A stretch of 63,965 nucleotides of DNA, counting the filler, from Candidatus Tectimicrobiota bacterium (GTDB taxonomy: Bacteria > JACPSX01): assembly GCA_016193065.1 (NCBI GenBank). It is 5 parts of 5 records of this genome, joined end to end, with 100 filler letters (N's around TTAATTAATTAA, not from the genome) between each part and the next. Parts side by side here need not be neighbours in the genome. Positions count along the whole stretch, not along the records: positions 1 to 26,266 come from JACPSX010000294.1; 4 more parts are not named here. One strand, given 5' to 3'. Under the pieces are notes generated by a model. That model searched no databases. It worked only from the letters and a program-made list of their open reading frames with translations, and was not told the origin of the DNA. Within the stretch, counting starts at the first letter, position 1. Every line of letters starts with the position of its first letter. Both the position numbers and the translations under genes were made by a program. Of the stretch, positions 562-59,322 are shown in pieces.

Positions 562-1847
562 TTATGGCCCTGGTCTTTTGCCCCGCCGGGGATCGGATGG
601 TTTTGACTGTACAAGATCATCGTAAACCTCGACCAGTTGCCGAGTGATCTGGTCCCGCGTATACCTGGCCATTACGGTCGCTGAGGCGTTGGCCACGACA
701 GACCTGCGCAGGTTGTCCTCCTCGAGGAGGCGAAGCACGTTCGCAGCCACAGAGGCGAAATCATTCGGACTCGCCAGGAGGCCGTTTTGTTCATGCTCGA
801 TGATCTCATCAATTACAGGGATCCTTGTGCTCACGACCGGACAACGGCAAGCCATCCCTTCGATAACTGAGATGCCAAACCCTTCATATCGGGTCGGCTG
901 GACCAAGGCATCGGCAAAAGAAAGGATCAGAAATTTATTCCTATCGTCGACCTGGGTGAACAGAAAGCACCTCTCACCCGTACCTTGCGCGCGATTGATG
1001 GAATCCAGTTCCCCCCTGCCCTCTAGGCTTTGAGAAATAAAAAGGAACGACGCCCGCGGAAACTTCTGAAGAATTGCCGGCATTGCTCTGGCCAACAAAT
1101 CAAAACCTTTCCGGTGCTTGATCTGGCCGATGTAGATGATGATAGGACGACTCAAAGATCTTCCATCTTCCATCTTCCATCTTCCATCACCTCATGGTCT
1201 CTGCGGACACACTTTTTTATGAACTCCAACAGAATCCCATTAGGGATAACTTTAACGGGTTTCCCGGCTCCGAGGAATTGAGCGCACAGGCTCTTCTCGA
1301 ACACTGAGAGAGCTATGATCGCATCCGCCTTCGAAAACGCCGAGTGCATTCGGAAATTCATATAGTGGTCAAAAAACCTGCCGTCCTTCAGAGCGCTCCT
1401 GGCGACCTCTTTCAGCCGAAAAATTGCCGACTCAAAAGCGATTTTTCCGGCCAGTGGATCCTCCGTATTCTCTACGATGTAAGAATCGTGAAGGAGGCCG
1501 TGAGGAGTAAAGACAACCGGAATCTTCAAGATATTTCCGGCCCAAGCCAATAAAAATCCAAGACGATTTTTCGGATCGTGGATGCGAATAACGTCAGGTC
1601 GTTTCTGTTGAAGTAAAGCCAGCAGGATCCCGGGCGACAGACCATGTCGATGAGGCTTGACCCGCCACACCCTGATTCCTTCCATGAGACTTTTCCTGCA
1701 CCTCATCTGAGGAAAAGGGCTGCGGGGAACCTGGTAGCAAAGAAGCGACACCTGGTGGCCTGCTTCGTGAAGGCCCGTCGCTTGTACATAATCGGGCCAC
1801 GACTTGTAGTAATCAATCCCCGCTCCAGAACAGATCAGGATTCGCAT
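562..1847 (-). pseudogene. GT4 glycosyltransferase split by a frameshift in a (GATGGAA)4 repeat; possibly phase-variable
   Basis: N-half 1152-1847 (GHQVSLL, TPHG, VIPNG) and C-half 562-1173 (RKGFDLL, EGFGISVIEGMAC) overlap exactly at the repeat. Confidence 0.85.
1158..1188 (-). repeat. Heptanucleotide tandem repeat (GATGGAA)4 plus GAT
   Basis: Plus strand ATC(TTCCATC)4. Confidence 0.95.
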
Positions 1848-1856
1848 GATATCTCC

Positions 1857-2933
1857 TCAGAGTTCCGTCTTTGCATCCTGCACAGCCTCGGTCAACCGCT
1901 CCATGCGCCGGGCAAAGGTGTGGTCCCGCTGCACCCTCTCGTACCCTCGCTCGGCGATCTTCCGGCGGGCTTCAGGGTTCGCCAGCAGAAAGTTTATCTT
2001 ATCAACCAGTTCCTCCAGGGAACGGTAGGACTCCACTTCCTCCCCGATCCGGTAGATCTCACTCAGCTCTTCCGAGTGCTCCAGCATGGCCATCCCCCCG
2101 CAGGCCGGTACTTCAAAAGCAAGACCGTTGACCCCCGAAGGGATTCCGTGCCAGGTATGAATGTTGAGACTGATCCGGGCCACATTGAACAGTTTGACGA
2201 CCTGCTCACCGTAAATCCCCGCCCCCTGAACGCAACCCGCCAATCTTCCGTCGCCGGAGAAGGCCTTTCTCCACCCGGGCCCCCAGATCTTCAAAGAAGC
2301 GGAAGTCCGAGAAGCCAGGTGTTCTATGATTTCCTGACGCTCCTTGTTCCACGATCCCACAAAGCTCACATCACAATCGTAACGCTGGCTGTCCGCGGCG
2401 GAGACCGCAAGCCTGCGGTGGATCCCGGGATCCACCGCCAGAGGCAGGTAATGACAGGGAACCTCCACCTGGCGGCGGAACTCGTCGAGAGCCCGCCGGG
2501 AAGTGCTCAGCAGGAGATCACAGCAGCGGACCTCTTCCACCGTATCCGGGTAGATCTTGATGGGTCCCTTGAGCCACCAGTAAGCCAGAACCGGAGAAAT
2601 GGTTTGTCTGATCTCCCGAAGAACCTCCGGAAGGAAGGAGGCCCCTCTCATGACCACCACCGCATCGGGCCGGACTTCTCGAACCGTGCGCAAAAGGCCC
2701 CGGCTCCGGGTGCTCAGATTGCTCCAGCGAGAGCGCATCAGGAATTCCTGATCCCGCCAAATGCGAAGGTTGCTCAGGATCTTGTTGGCCGGCCGGATCA
2801 CCCAGCGATCAAACGGGGTCCGCACGTCACACTCGAACGAAGCCACTTCATGCCCGAGACCGCGCAAAGCTTCCGCGCAGCTCCGTCCCAAGGGCACGGC
2901 CGTGCAGAAATAGTAGCAGAGAAGAATTTTCAT
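1857..2933 (-). CDS. Glycosyltransferase, CgeB/Glyco_trans_1_2-like
   Basis: DVSFVGSW, IWGPGW, ISLNIH, FEVPACGG, HTFARRM motifs. Confidence 0.85.
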   Translation of the reverse strand: MKILLCYYFCTAVPLGRSCAEALRGLGHEVASFECDVRTPFDRWVIRPANKILSNLRIWRDQEFLMRSRWSNLSTRSRGLLRTVREVRPDAVVVMRGASFLPEVLREIRQTISPVLAYWWLKGPIKIYPDTVEEVRCCDLLLSTSRRALDEFRRQVEVPCHYLPLAVDPGIHRRLAVSAADSQRYDCDVSFVGSWNKERQEIIEHLASRTSASLKIWGPGWRKAFSGDGRLAGCVQGAGIYGEQVVKLFNVARISLNIHTWHGIPSGVNGLAFEVPACGGMAMLEHSEELSEIYRIGEEVESYRSLEELVDKINFLLANPEARRKIAERGYERVQRDHTFARRMERLTEAVQDAKTEL

Positions 2934-4304
2934 CTACGATCCACCTGCGGACTGCAGCCGGGAGAGGAAGCCCTCCAGATCGGGATCCCAGATTTTCGCG
3001 GGATCCCCGATCGTCTCCGGGAGAAACAGCGCATTCGGAGCACGGTCCGACGACTCCCCCCCCTCACCCCTGCCTGCGCCGCGGGCGCCTGTCCGCGTGC
3101 GGACACGCACAGGCGGGCGGCAGGCAGGCTGACCCCCTCCCGTCAGAGGAGAGGGGAGAGAAACAAGGGGATCGGGCCAGGGGTAAAGCACCAGAAGAGG
3201 GAGATAGCGGCGGAAACGCGCCAGCCAAGCGGCTTCCCTAGAAAGGTAAACGTACTGGTAACGCTTCTTTCTGGCCAGCCGCCGGCAGCGCATGAGAGCA
3301 TACAGTCCAAAGCAGAAGCGGTTCCCCAGGTTCCCTGCGGACAGCGGGCGAACCAAGTAGGTTTTCAGATTTGCATGGGGAGTAAGCCCCAAACTCTCCC
3401 AGAAGGTCTCCGGCCTTAGAGGCTCCGGGAGCCCGGAAACCACCGCTACCCGACAGCGTGAGCGGGCAAACGCATGGGCTTTCTGCAGCAGCTTCACGAA
3501 GGCCTCAAAGGATTCGGGAACCGCGGGCACCCCGACAAAGACCAGCGCCGGCCGCGCAGGCCACTTCGCGTGCAGTCGCTGGCGGTTCTGTTCGGAAATA
3601 TTCTCGCCCCAGTCGGGAATCCGATCGAAGCTGCGGTTTTGAAAATGATGCACCCAGGAGTCCTGGACTTTTACGGAGAGGTAGCCGGCCCGGCGGGCGC
3701 GTTCGCAGTAGTCGTTGTCCTCGAAATTCCCCATGCCGAACGTCTCATCCAGGAAGCCGACGGCTTCAATCACCTCGCGCTTGATGAGCAGGCAGAATCC
3801 GCTGCAGTGCTCGAGCTCCTCGATTTTCCCCCCGCCGCGGGCCAGTCTCAACTGCACTTTCCGCCAGCGTTCCTCGGACCAGGATCCGCCCACGTTCCCC
3901 AGAGGATTCACTAAGCCGACCTGCGGTCGCGCCGCAGCCGCGGCGATCATGCGGGAGAGCCAGCCTTCCGTAACCAGGGTGTCGTTGTTGAGCAGGCAGA
4001 CGTAAGGCGCCTGGGAAGCCCTCAGGCCCTGATTGACAGCCCGCACAAATCCCAAATTCGTCGGGTTGGAGATGAGGACCAGTTTTTCTCCCAATGAAGC
4101 CGAGATCCCCTGCAGGTATTCCCCGGTGCCGTCCGTGCTGCCGTTGTCGATCACGATGAGGCGCGCCAGTTCCGGCGTGTGGCGCAGGATGCTCTCGATG
4201 CACCCCCGCGTGTAGGACAGTTGATTCCACACCGGAATCACCAGGTCGCACAAAGGCTGGCTTCCTCCCTCTTTTGAAATTCTATTTTCCCAGGAGGCCG
4301 CCAT
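2934..4304 (-). CDS. GT2 glycosyltransferase with C-terminal extension containing an in-frame palindromic insertion
   Basis: VIPVWNQ, IDNGSTDGT, LLNND, FEDNDYC. Confidence 0.85.
   Translation of the reverse strand: MAASWENRISKEGGSQPLCDLVIPVWNQLSYTRGCIESILRHTPELARLIVIDNGSTDGTGEYLQGISASLGEKLVLISNPTNLGFVRAVNQGLRASQAPYVCLLNNDTLVTEGWLSRMIAAAAARPQVGLVNPLGNVGGSWSEERWRKVQLRLARGGGKIEELEHCSGFCLLIKREVIEAVGFLDETFGMGNFEDNDYCERARRAGYLSVKVQDSWVHHFQNRSFDRIPDWGENISEQNRQRLHAKWPARPALVFVGVPAVPESFEAFVKLLQKAHAFARSRCRVAVVSGLPEPLRPETFWESLGLTPHANLKTYLVRPLSAGNLGNRFCFGLYALMRCRRLARKKRYQYVYLSREAAWLARFRRYLPLLVLYPWPDPLVSLPSPLTGGGQPACRPPVRVRTRTGARGAGRGEGGESSDRAPNALFLPETIGDPAKIWDPDLEGFLSRLQSAGGS
3056..3160. repeat. Triply nested palindromic element inside the GT2 CDS
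   Basis: Outer CCCTCACC..CCCTCCC..GGGAGAGGG palindrome; middle 30-nt CCTGCCTG..CAGGCAGG spanning 3069-3128; inner 30-nt CCTGTCCG..CAGGCGGG at 3088-3117. Confidence 0.85.
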
Positions 4305-5454
4305 AGAGATCCTCCACCTTGCGGGTCACCTCTGTCCAGTCAAACTCCCGCTCCACCCGGGCCCGGCCCCATTCGGCCATGGCGCAACTTCGCGCCGGAT
4401 CCTCCAGAAGAGAGCAAATAGCCGCCCCCAATTGCTCCGGGTCTTCCGGATGGTCCAGCAAAATCCCGTTCCGGCCTTCGCTGACTGCCTCCGAAATCCC
4501 GCCGCGCCGGGAGGCTACGATAGGTAGTCCGCTGGCGGCAGCCTCCAGGAAAACCATGCCGAAGGCTTCCCCTTCCAGGGAGGGAGCAGCGAACAGGTCT
4601 CCCAGGAGATAATAGCGGTGAATCTCGGACGGCGGGATCAAATCCAGAAACTTCACCCGGTCCCCGTAAGGACGGGCCATGGAGATGACGGTTTTGCCGT
4701 ATTCCATGCGCTGCCGGTCTCCACGCAAATCGCGCCGGATCTCGCCAATCAGAACAAGAGCCGCATCGGGGTGGCGGCGCAATACCAGAGGAAAAGCGGA
4801 TATCAGCGTGTTGATCCCCTTTTCCGGAGAAACCCTCCCCACAAACAGGATCACCTTGGAATTTTCCATTCCCAATTCCCGGCGCAGCCGCCGGACCTCC
4901 TCGGGAACTTCCCAGCGGGGGCGGAACTTCCGGGTATCCACCCCATTGGGGAGGATCGCCGTTTCCCCACGAAATCCGTCGAAGCACTCGCAGGCAAAGT
5001 TCAGGATGTACCGGCTGCAGCCCGCCAGGATGTCAAATTCAGGCAGCACTCCGCCGGCAACCGTGAACTTGTTGTGCACGTGGAGCACAACAGGCACCCG
5101 CGCTCCTGACAGGTTTTGCCGCACCGCCCCTAGAAACTGAAAGCGGTTGTGGAGGTGGATGAGCGCCGGGGAAACCCCGGCCACGAGCCGGGCAACCCGG
5201 CGCTCCATAGGGAATGGATCCAGCCGCGTGATCTTCTTGAACAGACGTGTGTAAAGAGTCCCGAACCGAACCCGCCGGTGGCGCACTCTCCGAACCGTCT
5301 CCTGCTCGGGGCGCTGCGGATCCCAGCAAGAGATGACCCAGGGCTCGTAAGACGCCAGGCGTCCGGCCACCTCGTCGATCCAGGTCTCTACGGCGGCCCC
5401 TTTAACGGGGGGAACCGGATGGAACCCCGGAGCGATGAGCGCGACTTTCTCCAT
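4282..5454 (-). CDS. GT4 glycosyltransferase
   Basis: PVPPVKGAAVE, FVGRVSPEKG, EAFGMVFLEAAASG. Confidence 0.9.
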   Translation of the reverse strand: MEKVALIAPGFHPVPPVKGAAVETWIDEVAGRLASYEPWVISCWDPQRPEQETVRRVRHRRVRFGTLYTRLFKKITRLDPFPMERRVARLVAGVSPALIHLHNRFQFLGAVRQNLSGARVPVVLHVHNKFTVAGGVLPEFDILAGCSRYILNFACECFDGFRGETAILPNGVDTRKFRPRWEVPEEVRRLRRELGMENSKVILFVGRVSPEKGINTLISAFPLVLRRHPDAALVLIGEIRRDLRGDRQRMEYGKTVISMARPYGDRVKFLDLIPPSEIHRYYLLGDLFAAPSLEGEAFGMVFLEAAASGLPIVASRRGGISEAVSEGRNGILLDHPEDPEQLGAAICSLLEDPARSCAMAEWGRARVEREFDWTEVTRKVEDLYGGLLGK

Positions 5455-5468
5455 GGAGACCCGCTCCT

Positions 5469-6713
5469 TCACGTCCGATTCCGCACGTCCCCCTCACCCC
5501 TGCCTGCGCCGCGGGCGCGGCAGGCAGGCTCCCCTCTCCCCCCTGCGTGGGGAGAGGGTGATTTCGAGAGATTGTAATACTCGTTCTCCAGAGCGCGAGC
5601 CACCCGATCCCAGGTAAATCGCGCCAGGACTCGCTGGCGTCCTTCTCTCCCCATCCTGCCACGCAACTCCGGATCCGCCAGGAGGAGGAGAATCTTTTCA
5701 GCCATCCCGGCCGCATCTCCGGGCTCCGTGAAAAAGCCGGTAAGACGGTCTTCGGCCACTTCGGGAATTCCTCCCACCCGGGTGGCCACCGCGGCAACTC
5801 CGCACGCCATGGCCTCGCACAGAGAGATGCCGAAGGTCTCGTCGGCAATGCTGGGGAGAACGAAAACATCAGCCAGAGCGAGATAGCGGGGAAGACGGGC
5901 GCGCGGAACCGGGCCGGCAAACACGATTTTTTCTGAAAGCCCCAGGTTCCCGCCCAAGTTCTCCAGATTCCGGCGCTCCTCTCCGTCTCCGAGGATTAAC
6001 AGTCTTACCGCGGAGCGGCGCTGGACAACCAGATTGAGAGCCACAATGAGATGACTCACCCCTTTCCAGCCGATGAGACGTCCCACGTAGAGGATCACCT
6101 GTTCTTCCGCGCGAAACCCCAGATCTTCCCGCAAGGATGTGTCTGCAGGAAGGGGCCGGAACTCCTCGGGATCGATCCCGTTATAGATCACCGCCGGGAG
6201 AACGCCGTAGCGATCCTGGACCTGGCGGGCGTTAAACTCGCTGCAGGAAACCGCGGCATCGACGCAGCGAAACCAGAGCCGGTCCGTGCAAAAGAAATCC
6301 CGGCCGTGGCACCCCAGCATCACCCTGACTCCGGAAAACCGCTTGGCCAGGACCGCCACCGGCAGGTCGTAGGGCTTGTGGATGTGCAGGACGTCGTAGC
6401 GCTCCCGGATTACGTCGGGCAGGGCCCGCGCCGCAAAACTCAGGCGCTCGCCGAGCTTGCGAAATCGGCTCCCCAGGTTCGGGATCCGGTGGCGCGGAAG
6501 AAACGGGTAGGAAAACACCCGGACCCCATCCGGGTGGGGCTCCAGATGGCCGCCCCGTCCGGTGAAGATGTGGATCTCATGCCCCAGGCGAGCCAGAGCC
6601 GAGGAAGCCCCCCACACGAAGCTCTCCACCCCCCCGATGCGGGCCGCTGCGGTGACATTGTACATGGCAACTTTCAGCGGCCGGCCGGAAGCCTCGGGAT
6701 TTCTCAAGCTCAC
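5469..6713 (-). CDS. GT4 glycosyltransferase; C-terminus encoded by a palindromic repeat
   Basis: YVGRLIGWKG, ETFGISLCEAMACG. Confidence 0.9.
   Translation of the reverse strand: MSLRNPEASGRPLKVAMYNVTAAARIGGVESFVWGASSALARLGHEIHIFTGRGGHLEPHPDGVRVFSYPFLPRHRIPNLGSRFRKLGERLSFAARALPDVIRERYDVLHIHKPYDLPVAVLAKRFSGVRVMLGCHGRDFFCTDRLWFRCVDAAVSCSEFNARQVQDRYGVLPAVIYNGIDPEEFRPLPADTSLREDLGFRAEEQVILYVGRLIGWKGVSHLIVALNLVVQRRSAVRLLILGDGEERRNLENLGGNLGLSEKIVFAGPVPRARLPRYLALADVFVLPSIADETFGISLCEAMACGVAAVATRVGGIPEVAEDRLTGFFTEPGDAAGMAEKILLLLADPELRGRMGREGRQRVLARFTWDRVARALENEYYNLSKSPSPHAGGRGEPACRARGAGRGEGDVRNRT
5488..5560. repeat. Doubly nested palindromic element (outer CCCTCACC family plus 30-nt CCTGCCTG..CAGGCAGG at 5499-5528)
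   Basis: Middle element matches the 3069-3128 copy except that it lacks the innermost 30-nt insert. Confidence 0.85.
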
Positions 6714-14559: not shown

Positions 14560-14581
14560 TCACAATCCTCCACCCCTCTCC

Positions 14582-16366
14582 CTATTCCTCTCCCCGGGGG
14601 GGAGAGGTGACGGTTGAGGGGGACAGGAATTCCCGGGCTTCCTCCGCGGCGAACTGCATGTCGTGGTAGCGCCGGTAGACTCCCCCGCGCTTGATCAGTT
14701 CCTGGTGGCTGCCCTGCTCCACGATGGTCCCCCGGTCCAGGACGATGATCCGGTCGGCGTTCTTGATGGTGGACAGGCGATGGGCGATGACGAAGGTGGT
14801 GCGGGACTTCATGAGGTTGCTCAAGGCAACCTGCACGATCTTTTCGGACTCCGAATCGAGAGAGGAAGTGGCCTCGTCGAGGATGAGGATCGGAGCATCC
14901 TTGAGAAGGGCCCGGGCAATGGCCAGCCTCTGGCGCTCTCCTCCGGAAAGCTTGACCCCGCGCTCGCCGATCACCGTGCCGTACCCCTCCGCAAGCCCCA
15001 GGATGAACTCGTGGGCATAGGCCGCCCGGGCCGCTTCCACAATCTCTTCAAACGCGGCGTCGGGCCGCGCGTAGGCGATGTTGTTGCGCACCGTGTCGTT
15101 GAACAGGAAGGTCTCCTGGGTCACGACCCCAATCTGATGGCGCAGGGATTTGATGGAAACCCGCCGCAAATCGGTGCCGTCAACGATCAGGCTTCCCGAG
15201 GTCACATTGTAAAAGCGCAGCAGGAGGTCCACCAGCGTCGTCTTGCCGGCCCCGCTCATCCCCACAATCGCTACGATCTCCCCCTTGTGCACCGTCAACC
15301 GGATGTCCCTGAGGACGTCTTTCCCTTCCGGCGAATACCGGAAGGAGACCCCACGGAACTCAATATCACGGGAAAAACGAGGCAAGGCCGGCAGTTCTCC
15401 ATCCGCAGCCGCTTCGGTCGGGGACTCCATGAGCGCGAAAACCCTCTCGGCGGCGGCGATGGACTCCTGGACCTGGGAGTACGCCTTGCCCAGAACGCGG
15501 GCCGGATTGTAGAGAAGGAAGAGCCCGCCCACGAAGGCGAAGAAAGTCCCCGTGGTCACCGTACCCTTGAAGACCTGGTTCCCTCCGTACCAGATGATCA
15601 CGGCGGCCCCGCACACCCCCAGGAATTCCATGAGCGGGCTGGTGAGCTCGCTGTACTTCACGCTTTTCATGATCACCTGAAAGAACGCCTTGTTGTCCTT
15701 CTGGAATTTTTTCTCCTCCAGCCCCTCCCCGCCAAAGGCCCGCACCACCCGGACCCCGGAAAAGGATTCCTGCAGCGTGCCGGTGAGTTTCCCCATGATC
15801 TCCTGTCCCCGGTGACCGAGCCGGCGCAGGTGCCGGGCGATCATGGAGACCACGACCGCCGTCACGGGAAACACCAGCAGAGAGATGAGGGCCCAATCCC
15901 ACTTGTAGTAAAACACCCACCCCAGCAGCCCAAGCAGCGTCACCGTGTTGATCAGGACGTCCCGAAAAACGCTGGTGACCGACTTCTGCATGGTGGTGAC
16001 ATCGTACAGGACGCGGGACATGAGGGCCCCTGTGGAGTCCCCGTCGAAGTGGGATAGGGGCAGGCGGTGAATGTGGCGGAAGAGTTCCGTGCGCAGGTCG
16101 ACGAGAAGGCTGCCGCTCACGTAGTACATGAGATAATCCTGCAGGTACGAGCAGGTGGCCTTCACAAAGTAGAGGCCCACGATGGCCAGAGGGAGCAAGG
16201 TGAGCATTTTCCGGTCCCGCCCCGCGAAGATCTGGTCAAAAATCTTCTGGATCAGCGGAACGGGCGAGGTGGCCACGGCTCCCACCACGACGGATAGCAG
16301 CAAGGCCGCCGCCAGGGGAACCAGGTAGGGGCGCAGGTAGGGGAGAAGTTTAGCCAGAATCTTCAT
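14582..16366 (-). CDS. msbA: Lipid A export ABC transporter permease/ATPase
   Basis: TM domain plus GMSGAGKT, LSGGERQR, ILDEATSSLD; located in LPS cluster. Confidence 0.9.
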   Translation of the reverse strand: MKILAKLLPYLRPYLVPLAAALLLSVVVGAVATSPVPLIQKIFDQIFAGRDRKMLTLLPLAIVGLYFVKATCSYLQDYLMYYVSGSLLVDLRTELFRHIHRLPLSHFDGDSTGALMSRVLYDVTTMQKSVTSVFRDVLINTVTLLGLLGWVFYYKWDWALISLLVFPVTAVVVSMIARHLRRLGHRGQEIMGKLTGTLQESFSGVRVVRAFGGEGLEEKKFQKDNKAFFQVIMKSVKYSELTSPLMEFLGVCGAAVIIWYGGNQVFKGTVTTGTFFAFVGGLFLLYNPARVLGKAYSQVQESIAAAERVFALMESPTEAAADGELPALPRFSRDIEFRGVSFRYSPEGKDVLRDIRLTVHKGEIVAIVGMSGAGKTTLVDLLLRFYNVTSGSLIVDGTDLRRVSIKSLRHQIGVVTQETFLFNDTVRNNIAYARPDAAFEEIVEAARAAYAHEFILGLAEGYGTVIGERGVKLSGGERQRLAIARALLKDAPILILDEATSSLDSESEKIVQVALSNLMKSRTTFVIAHRLSTIKNADRIIVLDRGTIVEQGSHQELIKRGGVYRRYHDMQFAAEEAREFLSPSTVTSPPRGEE

Positions 16367-21532: not shown

Positions 21533-21600
21533 GACCTTCGGCTCCTCTGATCTTTTCCCCCTCCACCATGGGAGGAGAACAACTTTCCCCTCTCCCCTCT

Positions 21601-21732
21601 GAGACTGTGTCGCAATCCACCGTTCGCCCTTCGACACGCTCAGGACGAACGGGTAAGTGGTTGGATTTCCGTGTGTCGTCGTCCGTTCGTGGTGAGCCTG
21701 TCGAACCATGAACGGACTTATGACACAGTCTC
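21601..21732. mobile_element. MITE-like element carrying a REP doublet, inserted into a CCCCTCTCCCC palindrome
   Basis: 11-bp terminal IR GAGACTGTGTC, TCT duplicated on both sides, internal TTCGACA.GCTCA-type REP pair. Confidence 0.7.
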
Positions 21733-21944
21733 TCTGGGGAGAGTGCAGGGTGAGGGGACCACCTGCCTCAGCCTCATTAAAGTTATTTATTTTAGTATCT
21801 TGAGAAGGCCCAATCAATGAAAAATCTTAGGGTTTCGCAGATAACAGCGGACGGCAGTTGCGCATCAGCGTTATGTTCTGTATCCTCACGGAAGCAATCA
21901 GCGATCCGCTTTCATGGACCGTTGATCCACCCGTGCATTATAAA

Positions 21945-21998
21945 AATCCCCTCCACCCATACCCTCCCCTTTGAGGGGGAGGGGTAGGGAGGAGGTGA
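21945..21998. repeat. CCCTCC..GGAGGG palindromic repeat (same family at 14567-14622, 34937-34990, 40367-40395)
   Basis: cctccacccataccctcccctttgagggggaggggtagggaggagg. Confidence 0.65.
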
Positions 21999-26266: not shown

Positions 26267-26366
26267 NNNNNNNNNNNNNNNNNNNNNNNNNNNNNNNNNN
26301 NNNNNNNNNNTTAATTAATTAANNNNNNNNNNNNNNNNNNNNNNNNNNNNNNNNNNNNNNNNNNNN
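26267..26366. other. Artificial contig linker
   Basis: N44-TTAATTAATTAA-N44 (stops in all frames). Confidence 0.97.
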
Positions 26367-27675: not shown

Positions 27676-27798
27676 GGATGACGGAACAAGCCGGAGTCAA
27701 CGTTGCTTGACTAATCTGCGGCCTCCCTCTGATGCGGTAGTCCCCCAGGCGACTTGAGTTGCAGAAAGGAGACCGGGTGTGCCTCGTAGGGCGACTTA

Positions 27799-27824
27799 CC
27801 TGTCTGCGTGTCCGCACAGGCAGG
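27799..27824. repeat. CCTG..CAGGCAGG small palindromic element
   Basis: CCTGTCTGCGTGTCCGCACAGGCAGG, related to 3088-3117. Confidence 0.7.
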
Positions 27825-28012
27825 AAGTTTTGCAGGCGCCGCACTGTCCTTCCCGAGGGGTTGCCCCCGTAGGCGATCTAAGCGGTTGCGAGGAAGAGAA
27901 CTCTCAATCCGGCCCACAGGATTCACGTCGCAAGCGCTTCGTGAGCCCAAGGGGGCACCCCGAGGAATCTGCGAGAGAATCAACTCAGCGAGGAAAAATC
28001 GACCCTGGCAAT

Positions 28013-29860
28013 TTATACGGATGTCGGCCACAGGGTGCGGGCCACCTGATCGAGGCCGAACTTGCGCAAGGTCCCGGCGGCGGGTTTTCCGGTCTCCAGG
28101 TCCCAGCCCATGGCCCGATAGAAATCATCCTTCAAGGGCTCCAGGTTTATGACTTCTCCGGCACTGGGACCATCCGGGAGTTTCTCTTTCAGAAGACGGT
28201 CTGGAAGCCGATCGCCAGCCCGGGTCAATCCATCACGTACCTGCAGTGCCCTCTCCAGGTTCAAGACGCGCTCCCCGATCTCCAGAAGACCTTCCGCAGT
28301 ATATTTCTCCCCGGTGATGGCGGTCAGCGCTCGGGCCACGACCTCCTCGCTGTAAACGGAGCGGGAAAAGGTGCACAGGACGGCGGAATCAAAGACAATT
28401 CGCGACAGGGCCAGCCGGCGGGTGAGATCCCCCTTGCCCGCCATCTCGGCTCCCTTGCCGCCGACGGTCTCCGTGCGGGCGGGAAGCCCGAGATCGTGAT
28501 GGCAGCCTCCCCGGGTTCCCACGGAGTACTGGATTGCCTGTCCTTTGGCTCCCCGGCACTCGTAGCCCCCCAGCTCCAGCCCCTTGCCGTGCATGGCGAA
28601 AGCCTGCGAGCCCTGCCCGATCTTGGCGGCAGCCCGCATGACTCCTTCCCCCAAAAGCTCCCCAAGCCCCTGGCGCTCGCCGATGCGGCGCACCATCTCC
28701 ACCATCTCCCGGTGGTTGCCGAAATAAAGTCTCAAGCCGTCGGCGTCGTGTTCCTTTAAGATCCCCCGCTCATAACACTCCATGGCGAAGCTGATGGCGA
28801 CCCCGGTCGAAATGGTATCCATCCCGTACTCGTCACAGAGCTTCTCGGCCGCCATAATGGCGTCAAAGCGGTCCACGCCGCAGTTGGAACCAAAGGAATA
28901 GATCGTGTCGTACTCGGGCCCTTCCACGACGGTTCCCGCGTACTCCCCCTCCTTGACCACGTCGTGGTGGCTGCAAGGCATGACACACAGGGGCCCGCAG
29001 ACGGAGTTCTTCACGCTGTATTTAGGTCTCTGGTGATGAGCGGAAATCCCCTGGGCTCCCTCAAAGGAGCCCCTCTGCCAGTTCCGGGTCGGCAGCATGC
29101 CCAGCTCGGACAGGGACTCCACATCGGAACCGAGCCCGTAGCGGGCCCGCTCCATGGTCACCGGGTGCCGGCTCGCCATTTCGATCATCTCCGCCAGCGC
29201 CTTCATGAGAGCCTGAGGGTCCTTCGCCGGAATGACGCCGTCGCCGCAAATCACGAACCCTTTCAGCTTCTTGGTCCCCAAAACGGCTCCGGAGCCCCCG
29301 CGGCTGAAGCTGCGATGGTTCGGCCCGCCGCTGATCGTGGCGGCAAAGCGCACCAGCTTTTCCCCGGCGGGTCCAATGACCACGGTCTCCTGATCCCTGA
29401 ACCCGGATTCCCGGGCCATGATCTCCTGGGCTTCCCCGGTCATCTTTCCCCAGAGATGGCCGGCGCCCCTGAACTCCACGCGGTTGTTATGGATCCAAAG
29501 GTAAGTGGGCTCCGCCGCAGCCCCTTCAATCAGGATGGCAAAGTAGCCGCAACGCCGCAGGTGGTCCCCCAGGGCTCCCCCTCCGGAGGCGTAGCTGTAG
29601 TAACCCGTAGCGGGAGACTTGAAACTGACGATGGACTTGCTGGTCATCACCATGCCGGCACCCTGGGCTGGACCAATGGCAAAGACGACCCGATTTTCAT
29701 CTCCCAGGGGTTCGGCCCCCACCGGTAGATGATCCCAGAGAAGCTTTGCCCCCAGACCTCTTCCCCCCAGGAAAAGGGGGATTTCCCGAGCATCGAGTTC
29801 AACGTCGGCTGCTTCCCGGCGACTGAGATCCACCCTGAGGATTTTTGGTTTTCCGATCAT
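28013..29860 (-). CDS. Aldehyde:ferredoxin oxidoreductase family (tungstoenzyme)
   Basis: GGRGLG, KSPATG, IGPAGE, GPEYDT, CDEYGMDTIS, TRGGCH. Confidence 0.9.
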   Translation of the reverse strand: MIGKPKILRVDLSRREAADVELDAREIPLFLGGRGLGAKLLWDHLPVGAEPLGDENRVVFAIGPAQGAGMVMTSKSIVSFKSPATGYYSYASGGGALGDHLRRCGYFAILIEGAAAEPTYLWIHNNRVEFRGAGHLWGKMTGEAQEIMARESGFRDQETVVIGPAGEKLVRFAATISGGPNHRSFSRGGSGAVLGTKKLKGFVICGDGVIPAKDPQALMKALAEMIEMASRHPVTMERARYGLGSDVESLSELGMLPTRNWQRGSFEGAQGISAHHQRPKYSVKNSVCGPLCVMPCSHHDVVKEGEYAGTVVEGPEYDTIYSFGSNCGVDRFDAIMAAEKLCDEYGMDTISTGVAISFAMECYERGILKEHDADGLRLYFGNHREMVEMVRRIGERQGLGELLGEGVMRAAAKIGQGSQAFAMHGKGLELGGYECRGAKGQAIQYSVGTRGGCHHDLGLPARTETVGGKGAEMAGKGDLTRRLALSRIVFDSAVLCTFSRSVYSEEVVARALTAITGEKYTAEGLLEIGERVLNLERALQVRDGLTRAGDRLPDRLLKEKLPDGPSAGEVINLEPLKDDFYRAMGWDLETGKPAAGTLRKFGLDQVARTLWPTSV

Positions 29861-34902: not shown

Positions 34903-35000
34903 CGGCAAGCATTCAACCGTCAGCACTCAGCAAAATATCACCTCCACCCATTCCCTCCCCCTGCGAGGGGGAGGGTTGGGGAGGGGGCACGGAGGAACAC

Positions 35001-36191
35001 ATGGAACTGAAAGATATCGTCGCAGTGAGCGCCGTGCGGACTCCCATGGGCCGCTTTGGAGGAACACTGAAAGACATCCCGGCCTGGGATCTGGGCGGCA
35101 TTGCCATTGCCAGCGCCCTCAAACGTGTCGATCTGAGAGGCGACCAGGTCAGCGAGGTGATTTACGGCAACTGCCGCCAGGCCGGCAACGGGCCTAACCC
35201 TTCCCGGACCGCCTCCATCAAAGGGGGAATCCCCCGCTCGGTTTCCACCCAGACCATCAACATGGCCTGTCCCTCGGGGATGAAGACCATTGCCCTGGCC
35301 TCACTGTCCATTCGAGCCGGCGACTCGGAAATCGTCGTGGTCGGAGGCATGGACAGCATGAGCACGATCCCCTACCTCCTGAAGGGAGTGCGCTGGGAAG
35401 GGTTCAAGATGGGGGACAAGACCCTCCTGGACGGCTGGAGCGACAGCATCGATCCTTTGTGCAACATGGGGATGGGACAGACCGCCGAAAACCTGGTGGA
35501 GAAATACGGGATCAGCCGCCAGGAGCAGGATCAGTTTGCCGTCGATAGCCACCAGAAAGCGGCCCGGGCCCAGGACGAGGGCTGGTTTGACAACGAGATC
35601 GTCCCCGTGGAGATTCCACCCCAGGGGAAAACTCCGGGAATCAACTTCACGAAGGACGAAAGCATCCGCCGCGACACCACCCTGGAGAAGATGGCCACTC
35701 TGCCCGCCGCCTTTAAGAAAGGGGGCACGGTCACTGCTGCAAACGCCTGCGGGATGACGGACGGGGCTACGGCTCTGATCCTCATGTCGCGGGATAAGGC
35801 CAAGTCCCTGGGGCTGAAACCGCTCTTCTCTCTGCTGGCTTATTCCTCTACCGCCGTGGACCCCGAGACCATGGGGGAAGGGCCGGGCGTCGCCATCCCG
35901 CTGGCCCTAAAGCACGCGGGCATGGCGCTGAACGACATGGACCTGATCGAGGTCAACGAGGCTTTCGCCGTCCAGATCCTGGCCAACGAGCGGGTTCTGC
36001 AGTGGGACCGCAGCAAGTTGAACGTCCACGGCGGGGCCATTGCCCTGGGCCACCCCACGGGGATCAGCGGGGCCCGCATCGTCGGCACCCTGTACAACGC
36101 CCTGAGCCGCCTCAACAAGGAGCTGGGCATCGCCTCCATTTGCGGAGGCGGGGGAGTGACGATGGGAATGATCATCCGGCGGGAAAACTAG
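35001..36191 (+). CDS. Acetyl-CoA C-acyltransferase (thiolase)
   Basis: INMACPSG, NEAFA, GHPTGISG, CGGGG. Confidence 0.92.
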   Translation: MELKDIVAVSAVRTPMGRFGGTLKDIPAWDLGGIAIASALKRVDLRGDQVSEVIYGNCRQAGNGPNPSRTASIKGGIPRSVSTQTINMACPSGMKTIALASLSIRAGDSEIVVVGGMDSMSTIPYLLKGVRWEGFKMGDKTLLDGWSDSIDPLCNMGMGQTAENLVEKYGISRQEQDQFAVDSHQKAARAQDEGWFDNEIVPVEIPPQGKTPGINFTKDESIRRDTTLEKMATLPAAFKKGGTVTAANACGMTDGATALILMSRDKAKSLGLKPLFSLLAYSSTAVDPETMGEGPGVAIPLALKHAGMALNDMDLIEVNEAFAVQILANERVLQWDRSKLNVHGGAIALGHPTGISGARIVGTLYNALSRLNKELGIASICGGGGVTMGMIIRREN

Positions 36192-36326
36192 CAGGCTGCT
36201 GAAAAAGTCCCTTTCGTGGTTCGACAAGCTCACCACGAACGGAGAAACTTCCAGAATTTCAATGCGTGCTCCGTTCGCCCTGAGCGCGTCGAAGGGTGAA
36301 CGGAGGGTTTTTCAGCAGCCTGCTAG
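36188..36326. mobile_element. MITE-like element carrying a REP doublet
   Basis: 19-bp perfect terminal IR CTAGCAGGCTGCTGAAAAA; internal TTCGACAAGCTCA REP pair; supplies the thiolase TAG stop. Confidence 0.75.
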
Positions 36327-37121: not shown

Positions 37122-37221
37122 NNNNNNNNNNNNNNNNNNNNNNNNNNNNNNNNNNNNNNNNNNNNTTAATTAATTAANNNNNNNNNNNNNNNNNNNNNNN
37201 NNNNNNNNNNNNNNNNNNNNN
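37122..37221. other. Artificial contig linker
   Basis: N run with central TTAATTAATTAA. Confidence 0.97.
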
Positions 37222-38383: not shown

Positions 38384-40355
38384 AACTCCACTCCGTTCCG
38401 CTCCAGCCACTCCTCCAGGGCAACCAAGAGCCACAATCGGGCCCAGGAGACATGCCGGCGGCCGGCCAGGAAGTCTTGCCAGAGGCTTTGCAACCGCTCC
38501 GGTCGGAAGAGACCTCGACCGCCCAACCGCTCCGGTCCCAGTCGCTCCTCACAGAATCCGCGGAAATCCCCACGCATCCAGGGCTCGAACGGAAGCGTAA
38601 AGCCCTGCTTGGGCCGGCGGACGATCTCTTTAGGCAGCAACCCGTCCAGGCTCTCGACAAGGAGGCGTTTCGGCGTACCGTTGGGGCGCTTGTGAGCGTC
38701 GGGGAGTCCCATTACATACTCCACCAACTTATGGTCGAGCAACGGCACCCTTACTTCCAGGGCATGGGCCATGCTCATCTGGTCGGTGTCTCGCAGGAGG
38801 ACATCGTGCATGTAGGTCCGTGCTTCACCGTACGACACTCGGGAAAACAGCTCGCTTTCCGGGGCACGGTCGTAGGCCTCCTTGAGAAGCTGTACGTAGG
38901 AGTCGCGAGTTCCATCCCCCTCAGAGATCCACCCGTTCTCGAGAAGTGCATGACGCTCGCGATCGGAAAACACTTGACGTGTCACCGGGAACGTCGCATC
39001 CAGTGTCCCGTCGCTCTTCACAAGGCTAGCGAGCTTGATGGCAGTTACGGACGACCTGCCCAAAGCCTCCACCATCCAACCGGCCAGGCTGCGAAACGCA
39101 CGCGGGGTTCGGCCCCATAGCCGGAGGAGGCCCCCTACCTTGCTCAACCGCCGAAAGGAGGGATAGCCACCGAAAAACTCGTCCCCTCCCAGCCCCGACA
39201 GGGCCACCGTGAGTCCGGCTGACCGGACAGCGCGGGAGATCACATAGGTATTCACGCCATCACCCGTGGGTTGATCCATGGCAGCCAATGCCTCGGGGAG
39301 TTGCGTGAGTAGATCCTGTTCGCCCAGCAAGATCTCGACGTGGTCTGTATGGAAGCGGGAGGCCACCTGTTGGGCATGCCGGGCCTCATTGTAAGCTTGT
39401 TCCCTGAAAATTACTGAGAAGGTTCGGGGAACTTGCCCCAGCTCACACATCAGCGCCACCACGGTGCTTGAGTCGATGCCGCCAGAGAGGAAAATGCCCA
39501 GCGGAACATCGCTCACCAGATGAATGGAAATTGCCTCCCGTAAGAGATCCCTAACCCGCCGCCGGCATTCTTCCCGCGTGGCAGATCTGGCGTCTGGGGA
39601 GGCGTCTTCGAGAAGATCCCAATAGCGTCCTCCTGTAATCGTCCCCTGGGAGTCCACCGTCATCCAGGAGCCTGGTGGGAGCACACGGATGCCCTGGATC
39701 AGCGTCCGCGGCGCGGGCACGGACTGATAGGCCAGGTATCCCCAGACACCAACGGGGTCCAGACGGCGGAGAACCAGTCCGCTGGCCAGGATCGCCCGCA
39801 CCTCTGAGGCGAAAAGGAACGTCCCTTCATGATCGTAGTAATAGAGTGGTTTTATCCCCAGCCGATCCCTCGCCAAGAACAGTTCTTGCCGACCCTGATC
39901 CCAGAGAGCGAATGCGAACATGCCCCGCAAGCGGCGAACACAATCCCGGCCCCACCTAGCGTAAGCCTTGAGAATTACTTCTGTATCCGTCTGAGAACGC
40001 GTGGTGAGCCTGGGGTCTGCGATCTTCAGCTCCGCCAGGAGTTCGCGGAAATTGTAGATCTCGCCGTTAAAGCTGATCCAATTACCGGTTGCCGGGTCGG
40101 GCATCGGTTGATGACCGTTCGCGCTCAAGTCCAAAATCGCCAGACGGGTGCTTCCCAGGAACGTTTCAACTCGCTCACNNNNNNNNNNNNNNNNNNNNNN
40201 NCCAGCGTCATGCCCTCGTCGTCCGGGCCTCGGTGTTGCAGATGTTTCACCATCGCGGCTACCGCCTCCGGGCCCGAGACCCGCCCTCCACCGGCCATGG
40301 GCAGCCCTCGATCCCCCATCCCAGCAGAGATCTGAATACCCGCAATCCCGCACAT
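38380..40355 (-). CDS. asnB: Asparagine synthase (glutamine-hydrolysing) family amidotransferase; spans N gap 40179-40201
   Basis: MCGIAG, HRGPDD, FNGEIYNF, ARDRLGIKPLYY, LSGGIDSS, LEVRVPLLD. Confidence 0.9.
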
Positions 40356-40491: not shown

Positions 40492-40576
40492 TCCCCCAAT
40501 CTCCCCTTTCAAATCCCCCCTGACCCCCCTTTGAAAAAGGGGGGATTGGGGGGATTTTTTTCAAAGGGGGATTTGA
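40492..40576. repeat. CCCCCCTTT..AAAGGGGGG palindromic repeat
   Basis: aaatcccccctgacccccctttgaaaaaggggggattggggggattt. Confidence 0.65.
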
Positions 40577-40931: not shown

Positions 40932-41031
40932 NNNNNNNNNNNNNNNNNNNNNNNNNNNNNNNNNNNNNNNNNNNNTTAATTAATTAANNNNNNNNNNNNN
41001 NNNNNNNNNNNNNNNNNNNNNNNNNNNNNNN
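40932..41031. other. Artificial contig linker
   Basis: N run with central TTAATTAATTAA. Confidence 0.97.
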
Positions 41032-59222: not shown

Positions 59223-59322
59223 NNNNNNNNNNNNNNNNNNNNNNNNNNNNNNNNNNNNNNNNNNNNTTAATTAATTAANNNNNNNNNNNNNNNNNNNNNN
59301 NNNNNNNNNNNNNNNNNNNNNN
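59223..59322. other. Artificial contig linker
   Basis: N run with central TTAATTAATTAA. Confidence 0.97.

Follow-up and report, generated by a model that had tools for sequence, protein, structure and literature searches.

A stretch of 63,965 nucleotides from the draft genome of a Candidatus Tectimicrobiota bacterium (GCA_016193065.1), hereafter the window, carries 30-nt imperfect hairpins (30-mers) that sit inside larger palindromic repeats and are translated within two glycosyltransferase genes. Our comparative analyses indicate that the 30-mers are probably very small non-autonomous elements, mobile now or until recently, which insert precisely into hairpins and survive in frame where they enter genes. 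They share one hairpin architecture, are inserted precisely, nest in one another, persist in frame within genes and are spread across phyla.

The window is composed of joined parts (at least five contigs), with a G+C content of 59.8%, and its linkers are runs of N around TTAATTAATTAA (Table 1). Because it represents several contigs and not one molecule, distances across the N runs are meaningless.

Hairpin elements in two glycosyltransferase genes

One 30-mer, of the C type, lies alone within a host palindrome near the 3' end of a GT4 glycosyltransferase gene, and a second C-type copy, itself split by another 30-mer of the T type, lies within a related host palindrome in a GT2 glycosyltransferase gene (Table 1). 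Both were found where the original prediction had placed them, and excising 3088-3117 from the composite at 3069-3128 leaves a string identical (30/30) to that at 5499-5528. The two sites have 42 exact bases in common (3059-3088 = 5489-5518 and 3117-3130 = 5517-5530), comprising the C-rich arm, the 30-mer and two further bases, and the borders of the inner insert are ambiguous by 2 nt, with GC on both sides. The solo copy had been described as an exact palindrome, which was incorrect: 24 of 30 positions are self-complementary in CCTGCCTGCGCCGCGGGCGCGGCAGGCAGG and 16 of 30 in the inner 30-mer CCTGTCCGCGTGCGGACACGCACAGGCGGG, and the elements are imperfect hairpins instead. The folding energy was -13.1 kcal/mol for the solo element, -26.9 kcal/mol for the composite (z -3.79) and -37 kcal/mol for the whole site at 3058-3165 (z -4.81). 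The degenerate pattern CCTGYCYGCGYSSNNNNNNSSRCAGGCRGG had two exact matches in the window, against 0.00 expected from 100 window shuffles, and the covariance-model E-values of the two sites were 3e-6 and 3.7e-6; chance is therefore excluded for both.

The tail of the GT4 protein beyond its Pfam domains encodes both host palindrome B and the 30-mer, and its TGA stop shares bases with the AAGGAG ribosome-binding site of the gene that follows. The minus-strand translation of 5499-5528 is PACRARGAGR. The alignment of a GT4 ortholog, P0005 (67% identical), with P0001 runs to the very end and contains one gap only, which spans exactly the 10 residues PACRARGAGR, and both tails end in R-x-R-T-stop; a nearer homolog, P0004 (79%), ends earlier, directly past the host hairpin. 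In the GT2 gene, the linker that contains the composite is wholly different among three orthologs. However variable the linker, a conserved C-terminal motif (GDPAKIWDPDLEGFLSRL) follows downstream of the composite, in the same frame, in all three orthologs, and thus the 60-nt composite is read through in frame. The inner element is read by the GT2 gene as PPVRVRTRTG, in the same orientation and frame as an insert in the transposase at collection locus L043, described below.

These frames bear out the earlier view that both composites are translated inside glycosyltransferases, since the minus-strand frames are open and yield the peptides that it quoted. Its suggestion that the elements remodel protein ends applies to the copy in the GT4 tail, whereas the composite at 3069-3128 lies in an internal GT2 linker, upstream of the conserved C-terminal motif. 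Both inserts are probably neutral decorations of their proteins.

Table 1. Coordinates of hairpin elements, host palindromes, genes and linkers in the window
Feature	Position	Strand	Details
Solo 30-nt hairpin element, C-type	5499..5528	+	Inner stem CCGC/GCGG; 43.3 bits, E 3e-6 (covariance model)
60-nt composite	3069..3128	+	C-type 30-mer (3069-3087 and 3118-3128) split at 3' edge of loop by second element
Inner 30-nt element, T-type	3088..3117	+	Slightly degenerate (C at position 7, G at 28); 42.8 bits
Host palindrome B	5489..5558	+	C-rich 5' arm to 5498, insertion point, then 10-bp hairpin (5532-5541 with 5549-5558)
Host palindrome A	3059..3160	+	5' arm 3060-3068 pairs with 3148-3156; encloses 60-nt composite and small hairpin 3129-3147
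Third family site, 26-nt variant CCTGTCTGCGTGTCCGCACAGGCAGG	27799..27824	+	2-bp inner stem; covariance model 32.9 bits, E 2.7e-4
GT4 glycosyltransferase gene (P0001)	5469..6713	-	414 aa; Pfam domains end near residue 376
GT2 glycosyltransferase gene (P0002)	2934..4304	-	456 aa; composite in variable linker
N linkers	26267-26366, 37122-37221, 40932-41031, 59223-59322		Plus internal N gap 40179-40201

A family of covarying hairpins

A scan of a genome collection with the degenerate pattern recovered at least 124 loci in about 104 assemblies (a tally of accession prefixes). This pattern fixes the element length at 30 nt. A covariance model was built from the collection sequences and run on the window and the loci. 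Both 30-mer sequences of the window fit the architecture ((((((((..((((....)))))))))))), in which the outer stem has 8 bp, the CG at positions 9-10 is unpaired, and an inner stem of 4 bp carries a loop of 4 nt. The consensus of the family comprises an outer stem of CCTGYCTG with CAGRCAGG, the unpaired CG on the 5' side, a covarying inner stem of 3-5 bp and a short loop.

The hairpin was kept in 122 of the 125 matches listed. In the 57 distinct sequences, 98.0% of paired cells were complementary compared with 86.1% in shuffles, every slid register stayed below 49%, and all four inner pairs showed compensatory changes on both sides; pair 14-19, which the pattern leaves free, was paired in 49 of the 57 as G-C, C-G, A-T, G-T or T-A. 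This excess of pairing, together with the compensatory changes, identifies the matches as related hairpins and not as products of chance. Five high-G+C loci with CCCGCG...GCGGG ends (L004, L021, L041, L064 and L103) may nevertheless be look-alikes.

Among the matches listed, the exact T-type sequence CCTGTCTGCGTGCGGACACGCACAGGCAGG was present in 25 copies and the commonest C-type sequence in 11, and several assemblies held two to four loci or more. T-type 30-mers (88 of 122 matches listed) are the nearest relatives of the inner element at 3088-3117, and the C-type variant of the window was found exactly in L067 (Latescibacterota) and L097 (Bipolaricaulota). Plasmid and phage collections gave no real match (one partial 24-nt Streptomyces match and none, respectively).

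Element lengths range from 20 to 36 nt and are mostly 27, 30 or 33 nt. The covariance model revealed further standalone variants in the loci, of 27 nt (six), 36, 30, 28 and 20 nt (two). These extra copies lie mostly within 300 nt of the first match in the 5-kb loci (e.g., L076, L073, L079, L045, L069, L014, L071, L042 and L001), and the elements thus cluster in particular spacers. About 20 of the 27 lengths not fixed by the pattern are multiples of three, many of these copies being related to one another, and 50 of 60 distinct 30-mers are free of stops in all six frames, compared with 38% of shuffles.

The third family site of the window (27799-27824) lies about 190 nt downstream of an aldehyde ferredoxin oxidoreductase gene (28013-29860, minus strand) and within a 106-aa open reading frame (ORF; 27711-28031, minus strand) without a Pfam match; it is probably located in non-coding, intergenic DNA.

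Precise insertion, nesting and choice of target

Insertion is shown by sites that occur both with and without the element. In L052, the host palindrome is present in the same genome in an empty form (~1675) and in a form filled by a T-type 30-mer (~1004), the two differing by exactly 30 nt, although a C leaves the border uncertain by 1 nt. Insertion took place where the C-rich 5' arm ends, and both window sites and L097 are filled at the same point. The host palindrome family of the window was found empty in L052, L114 and L051, in agreement with the original prediction that removal of the 30-mer restores the family pattern.

L043, a Latescibacterota gene for an IS1380-type transposase, carries three family elements (30, 21 and 30 nt) at 2409-3849. 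The peptide LPVRVRTQTG stands between two conserved blocks in four of the 11 sequences aligned (L043, P0242, P0243 and the full-length, 457-aa P0245), and the other seven homologs (260-454 aa) lack exactly these residues. The second insert, ACLRRMLGRQ, which derives from a C-type 30-mer, and a 7-residue insert, which derives from the 21-nt mini-hairpin, are missing in all seven homologs compared. The L043 gene is split into two overlapping frames near 3100-3200, and this copy has therefore probably decayed; P0245 is an intact relative with the first insert. The empty sites that had been proposed as a check were thus found in GT4 ortholog P0005, in L052 and in the L043 homologs, and these precise 30-nt differences in three independent settings support the notion of a tiny non-autonomous element with CCTG..CAGG ends.

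The same proposal, that the element targets other hairpins including those of its own family, was also sustained. Fourteen of 123 elements are nested in another family member, a strong excess given that family DNA makes up, by our estimate, less than ~1% even of an element-centred sample. The 57-nt composites in L011, L015 and L039 are a 27-nt variant split by an inverted 30-mer, the 63-nt composites in L014 and L018 are a 33-nt variant split likewise, and L028 and L084 are interrupted full 30-mers. In addition, complementary flanks of at least 8 bp, representing unrelated hairpins, surround 14 of 119 elements compared with 8 of 620 controls. The nested insertion point is always before a C and in or beside a host loop or bulge, and this, 'before a C, in or beside an unpaired part', is the sole surviving target rule. 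A stricter rule, in which the insert always lies just 3' of the host loop on its own strand, was ruled out by the 63-nt composites and by L119. Among the matches listed, 100 of 121 have C at position +1, and the 10 bases of the left flank are unconserved, with few T at -1. No target duplication of 3 nt or more was found, direct repeats flanking 3.4% of 116 elements and 3.0% of controls. The absence of target duplication originally reported therefore holds across the family at this threshold, but not strictly for the nested copy, with its 2-nt GC ambiguity.

Several other palindromic mosaics were observed. In L051 (2994-3350, from a Verrucomicrobia metagenome-assembled genome, MAG), a 628-aa ORF whose product has DUF1573 and rhodanese domains contains four tandem 90-nt host-palindrome units, each with two-part arms and an additional small hairpin, and in a further unit (minus strand, ending at ~2531) a C-type 30-mer replaces the small hairpin. 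In L107 (~301-630), a T-type 30-mer enclosed by another palindromic repeat lies ~100 nt upstream of the gene for a signal-recognition-particle RNA (RF01854, 120 bits), and in L038 a C-type 30-mer occupies the centre of a repeat of the CGTTCG/GTCGAA kind.

Genomic placement and spread across bacteria

The longest ORF through the element reached at least 200 aa for 18 of 54 copies, compared with 77% of 913 control positions, indicating that the family is mainly intergenic; several of the 18 genic cases lie upstream of the true start or are look-alikes. Genic copies occupy tolerant places: the region of a primase past its Toprim domain (L034), an interdomain linker (L051), transposase genes (L043 and L080), and the tail and linker of the two window proteins. 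Another copy (L033) is apparently located in a loop region of a ZIP transporter.

Among the matches listed, carriers are found in Desulfobacterota-type lineages, Planctomycetota (including Brocadia and Kuenenia), Verrucomicrobiota, Kiritimatiellae and Lentisphaerae; in Zeta-, Gamma- and Alphaproteobacteria, Latescibacterota, Bipolaricaulota and Patescibacteria (Kaiserbacteria, Saccharibacteria and Kazan); and in Bacteroidota, Spirochaetota, Calditrichia, Nitrospiraceae, Fibrobacteres, WOR-3, Actinomycetota, Methylomirabilota and others. The G+C content of these loci ranges from 0.34 to 0.70, compared with 63-87% for the elements themselves. Chromosome-level assemblies (OZ and AP records) are among the carriers. 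Copies with the same flanks occur within one genome in three sets (L078/L090/L094; L081/L115; L098/L099/L120); in the first of these, a single Opitutales MAG (L078 at 2501-3830), the 30-mer lies in the same short host hairpin in all three copies.

Proposed mobilisation and alternative explanations

Taken together, these observations suggest a process in which the elements would be inserted as precise units, with no target duplication of 3 nt or more, preferably into the loop, bulge or arm junction of other palindromic repeats, own family included, and would so give rise to nested 'Russian doll' structures. Copies landing in tolerant parts of genes would persist as inserts of 7-10 residues, and they survive in frame because the usual lengths are divisible by three and the six frames seldom contain a stop. 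In the window, one copy would have put 10 residues into the GT4 tail and the nested pair 20 into the GT2 linker. The active form of the element may be single-stranded DNA, which an enzyme recognising the folded hairpin may move in trans. An HUH/Y1 transposase, of the IS200 kind or related to the tyrosine transposases (RAYTs) associated with repetitive extragenic palindromic (REP) sequences, is the leading candidate for this role, as the original prediction had also suggested, a choice that we make tentatively. Enzymes of this class are the most familiar ones with such properties (Quentin 2018, PMC6006769).

Several observations weigh against this interpretation. Neither the 61 ORFs of the window nor the 257 ORFs next to 76 loci yielded an HUH/Y1 or RAYT gene or domain, and the mobile genes that do occur near copies (ISL3, IS1380, IS4-like and IS110 transposases and one reverse transcriptase) were each seen once. 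Element orientation is unbiased relative to local GC skew (36 vs 33, p 0.81), for which 5-kb flanks are a weak proxy of the replication strand. A 1-nt duplication of C and a 30-nt unit inserted without duplication cannot be told apart. The linker is too variable for a clean 20-residue gap to emerge from the alignment of three GT2 orthologs. In window copy B and in L097, one and the same rare variant of the 30-mer occupies the corresponding point of the host, and some spread as a composite may thus happen. The source genome is absent among the matches listed, the window has only three sites in 64 kb, and nearly all records with the element are MAGs. Finally, REPs bear an unpaired GTAG/CGTC tag at the stem end, which the 30-mers lack, since their positions 1-4 (CCTG) pair with 27-30.

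A first alternative is that the element is mobile but is moved by another activity, such as a folded-strand or guide recombinase (IS110- or tyrosine-recombinase-type), a reverse-transcriptase route, or host repair or replication acting on extruded hairpins. This is rather unlikely. No HUH gene turned up among the ORFs surveyed near copies, an IS110-family transposase gene in L078 terminates at a distance of 68 nt from the element, L019 encodes a reverse transcriptase, a strand bias against GC skew is absent, and the near-identity of elements across phyla would fit the need for a very widespread factor. However, such neighbours occur once each among the 76 loci and therefore show no association, and the use of REPs as targets by IS110 elements would explain the adjacency without any mobilising role. 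We know of no mechanism that moves a 30-nt unit in this way, which also counts against this alternative.

A second alternative is that the 30-mer is not independently mobile and travels only within larger composites, by recombination, gene conversion or transposition of the composite itself. The variant shared by window copy B and L097 (Bipolaricaulota) and the flanks shared by copies within one genome are in line with such a process. On the other hand, the same L052 host is both empty and filled, the L043 alleles differ by the 30-mer alone and in unrelated coding sequence, and the nested and solo copies of the window differ only by the inner 30 nt. Moreover, the flanks are unrelated in most of the 121 matches listed, and the solo copies refute composite travel as the sole mechanism, leaving this explanation improbable.

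It is highly unlikely that the hairpins are functional RNA or transcription signals (terminators, attenuators, mRNA stabilisers or translational couplers) kept by selection in the glycosyltransferase operon. Both window sites do lie at or near gene 3' ends in an operon with little space between its genes, and either strand of these sites folds stably; many REPs are described as lying downstream of coding regions and as plausibly transcribed (Di Nocera 2013, PMC3733652). The placement of the family at large points the other way. Intergenic copies occupy 15 divergent, 18 tandem (8 sense and 10 antisense) and 4 convergent spacers, and copies in ORFs of at least 120 aa comprise 10 sense and 9 antisense; neither class thus shows a preferred orientation with respect to transcription, and with divergent spacers outnumbering convergent ones a terminator or mRNA element fits poorly. 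No T-run follows the element, T being the rarest base at 8 of the 10 following positions and never enriched. Rfam returned nothing relevant at threshold for window positions 2800-5800, and for 12 loci nothing relevant to the element at threshold, the element itself giving only sub-threshold, generic microRNA-precursor hairpins. Copies also occur inside coding sequence, and orthologs exist without the element.

Equally improbable is a minimal MITE (miniature inverted-repeat transposable element), consisting of two terminal inverted repeats with nothing between them and moved by a classical DDE-type transposase. The element has inverted-repeat ends, and copies lie in or beside insertion sequences (IS) in L005, L043, L078 and L080. 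However, target-site duplications of 3 nt or more are missing, 20-36 nt is far below MITE size, the copies in L043 lie inside the transposase gene and not at the IS ends, and the asymmetric bulge, which is conserved, and the compensatory changes in the stems are signs of a folded single strand.

An assembly or binning artefact can scarcely be credited: almost all records are MAGs, plasmid and phage collections lack the element, and both cultured isolates look like chance matches (L103 fails the hairpin test; L021, a Bifidobacterium, passes it with variant ends), but the family is present in chromosome-level assemblies from many independent studies and in differing sequence contexts, its loops vary while its stems covary, frames are kept, and the insert is present in some protein clusters from other sources and absent in others.

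Returning to the small mobile hairpin that we favour, a bolder picture can be entertained as a possibility, one about which we are doubtful. The 30-mers may represent a pan-bacterial 'micro-transposon' of ~20-36 nt, one of the smallest mobile DNA units known, nearly identical in more than 12 phyla, which would be moved by a single-strand-DNA enzyme aimed at extruded hairpin loops and would colonise palindromes and its own copies. The 3n length and stop-free sequence would then be adaptations to persist in genes, where the element would write peptides of 7-10 residues, and insertion sequences, the IS1380-type element of L043 for one, would carry it between phyla. The copies in IS genes suggest such a vehicle for spread between genomes.

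If this is true, a 30-base hairpin would be a selfish element with a host range over much of the bacterial tree. The questions touched are the minimum size of a mobile unit, the maintenance of sequence identity across genomes of 34% and 70% G+C, and the origin of nested palindrome mosaics in uncultured bacteria. The elements also produce spurious ORFs, lengthen others and leave 10-residue inserts in annotated proteins, and they may break assemblies. The natural pairs of empty and filled sites should be useful in finding the enzyme, which could serve as a compact hairpin-recognising tool.

Other features of the window

The contig at 1-26266 represents a minus-strand polysaccharide or lipopolysaccharide cluster, which encodes glycosyltransferases of families GT2, GT4 and GT9 together with a deacetylase and an ABC exporter; named homologs of the GT4 and GT2 genes described above belong to Nitrospirota and neighbouring lineages. 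Within the same contig, two adjoining and slightly overlapping ORFs (562-1847, minus strand) correspond to the two halves of a GT4 protein (Glyco_transf_4 at 1152-1847 and Glycos_transf_1 at 562-1173), suggesting that one gene has been split, either by a frameshift or by an error in sequencing.

Further palindromic structures were also noted. A second Russian doll, built from other module types, is located at 21586-21760, upstream of the probable start of a HAD-hydrolase gene: C-rich and G-rich arms of the host-palindrome kind enclose a 9-bp inverted repeat (GACTGTGTC with GACACAGTC), which itself encloses hairpins with CCGTTCG-type stems. At 36188-36326, directly after a thiolase gene, a perfect 19-bp inverted repeat surrounds a 25-nt, 80% complementary inverted repeat of the CGTTCG/GTCGAA kind. 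In addition, four intergenic polypyrimidine/polypurine hairpins in two parts (14566-14628, 21947-21998, 34941-34987 and 40493-40557), with a CCTCCACCC..CCCTCCCC arm and a G/A-rich complement, resemble the host palindrome in style, and all four are free of inserts.

Comparison with known systems

A description in print of the 30-mer family was not found in the literature searched with parts of the 30-mer, the encoded peptides and keywords, which returned only general papers on REPs, RAYTs, MITEs and Rickettsia palindromic elements (RPEs). One preprint (10.64898/2026.09.22.753630) proved to have no bearing on the family.

The resemblance to RPEs lies in insertion in frame with the reading frame kept open, as seen in the P0005 gap, the L043 alleles, the full-length P0245 and the P0002 motif. 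This likeness was part of the original prediction and was upheld by the 10-residue gaps in orthologs and alleles and by the conserved motif that stays in frame past the 60-nt composite. RPE-1 is ~100-150 bp long and confined to Rickettsia. The 30-mer family differs in its size (20-36 nt, a fifth of that of RPEs), in its sequence, in its occurrence in many phyla and in being mostly intergenic. RPEs are described as palindromic repeats in frame within genes that probably still encode functional proteins (Di Nocera 2013, PMC3733652).

With IS200/IS605 elements, the 30-mers share a putative hairpin recognition, the lack of target duplication and a short conserved adjacent base, but an IS200/IS605 element bears two subterminal hairpins that differ from each other and has a target of 4-5 nt (Quentin 2018, PMC6006769), whereas the 30-mers consist of a single hairpin with one conserved flanking C, far less than such a target. 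Set beside IS200/IS605-type transposition, the 30-mers show no strand bias relative to local GC skew, a weak proxy. Class 3 Y1 genes flanked by atypical hairpins are reported from Planctomycetes and Acidobacteria (Quentin 2018, PMC6006769). IS110 elements use REPs as targets (Di Nocera 2013, PMC3733652, background); in that case a full IS with its own recombinase is aimed at palindromic repeats, whereas here the insert itself is a 30-nt hairpin.

In carrying a mosaic of several palindromic module types per site, the family also resembles bacterial interspersed mosaic elements (BIMEs). In BIMEs, which belong to enterobacteria, REPs and linker motifs are arrayed side by side, whereas the 30-mer modules are inserted inside one another.

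The closest parallels are with REPs and with REPINs. REPs are 20-40 bp long, occur in eight phyla and are found in some cases inside genes and in others inside small palindromes (Di Nocera 2013, PMC3733652). Like the 30-mers, REPs and REPINs are short, G+C-rich, imperfect palindromes in multiple copies, mainly extragenic; REPs likewise lack target duplication, and both kinds are thought to act as folded single strands. The differences, beyond the unpaired tag, are threefold. A RAYT gene is typical of the REP system, whereas the ORFs surveyed in the window and beside the 76 loci included none. REPIN/RAYT systems are described as vertically inherited (bioRxiv 10.1101/2021.07.10.451892), unlike the 30-mers, whose stems are nearly invariant across many phyla. 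The frequent self-nesting of the 30-mers has no counterpart in the REP descriptions compared, which cover part of Di Nocera (2013, PMC3733652). The 30-mers are a real family of REP-like elements, and REPs are the nearest known kind.

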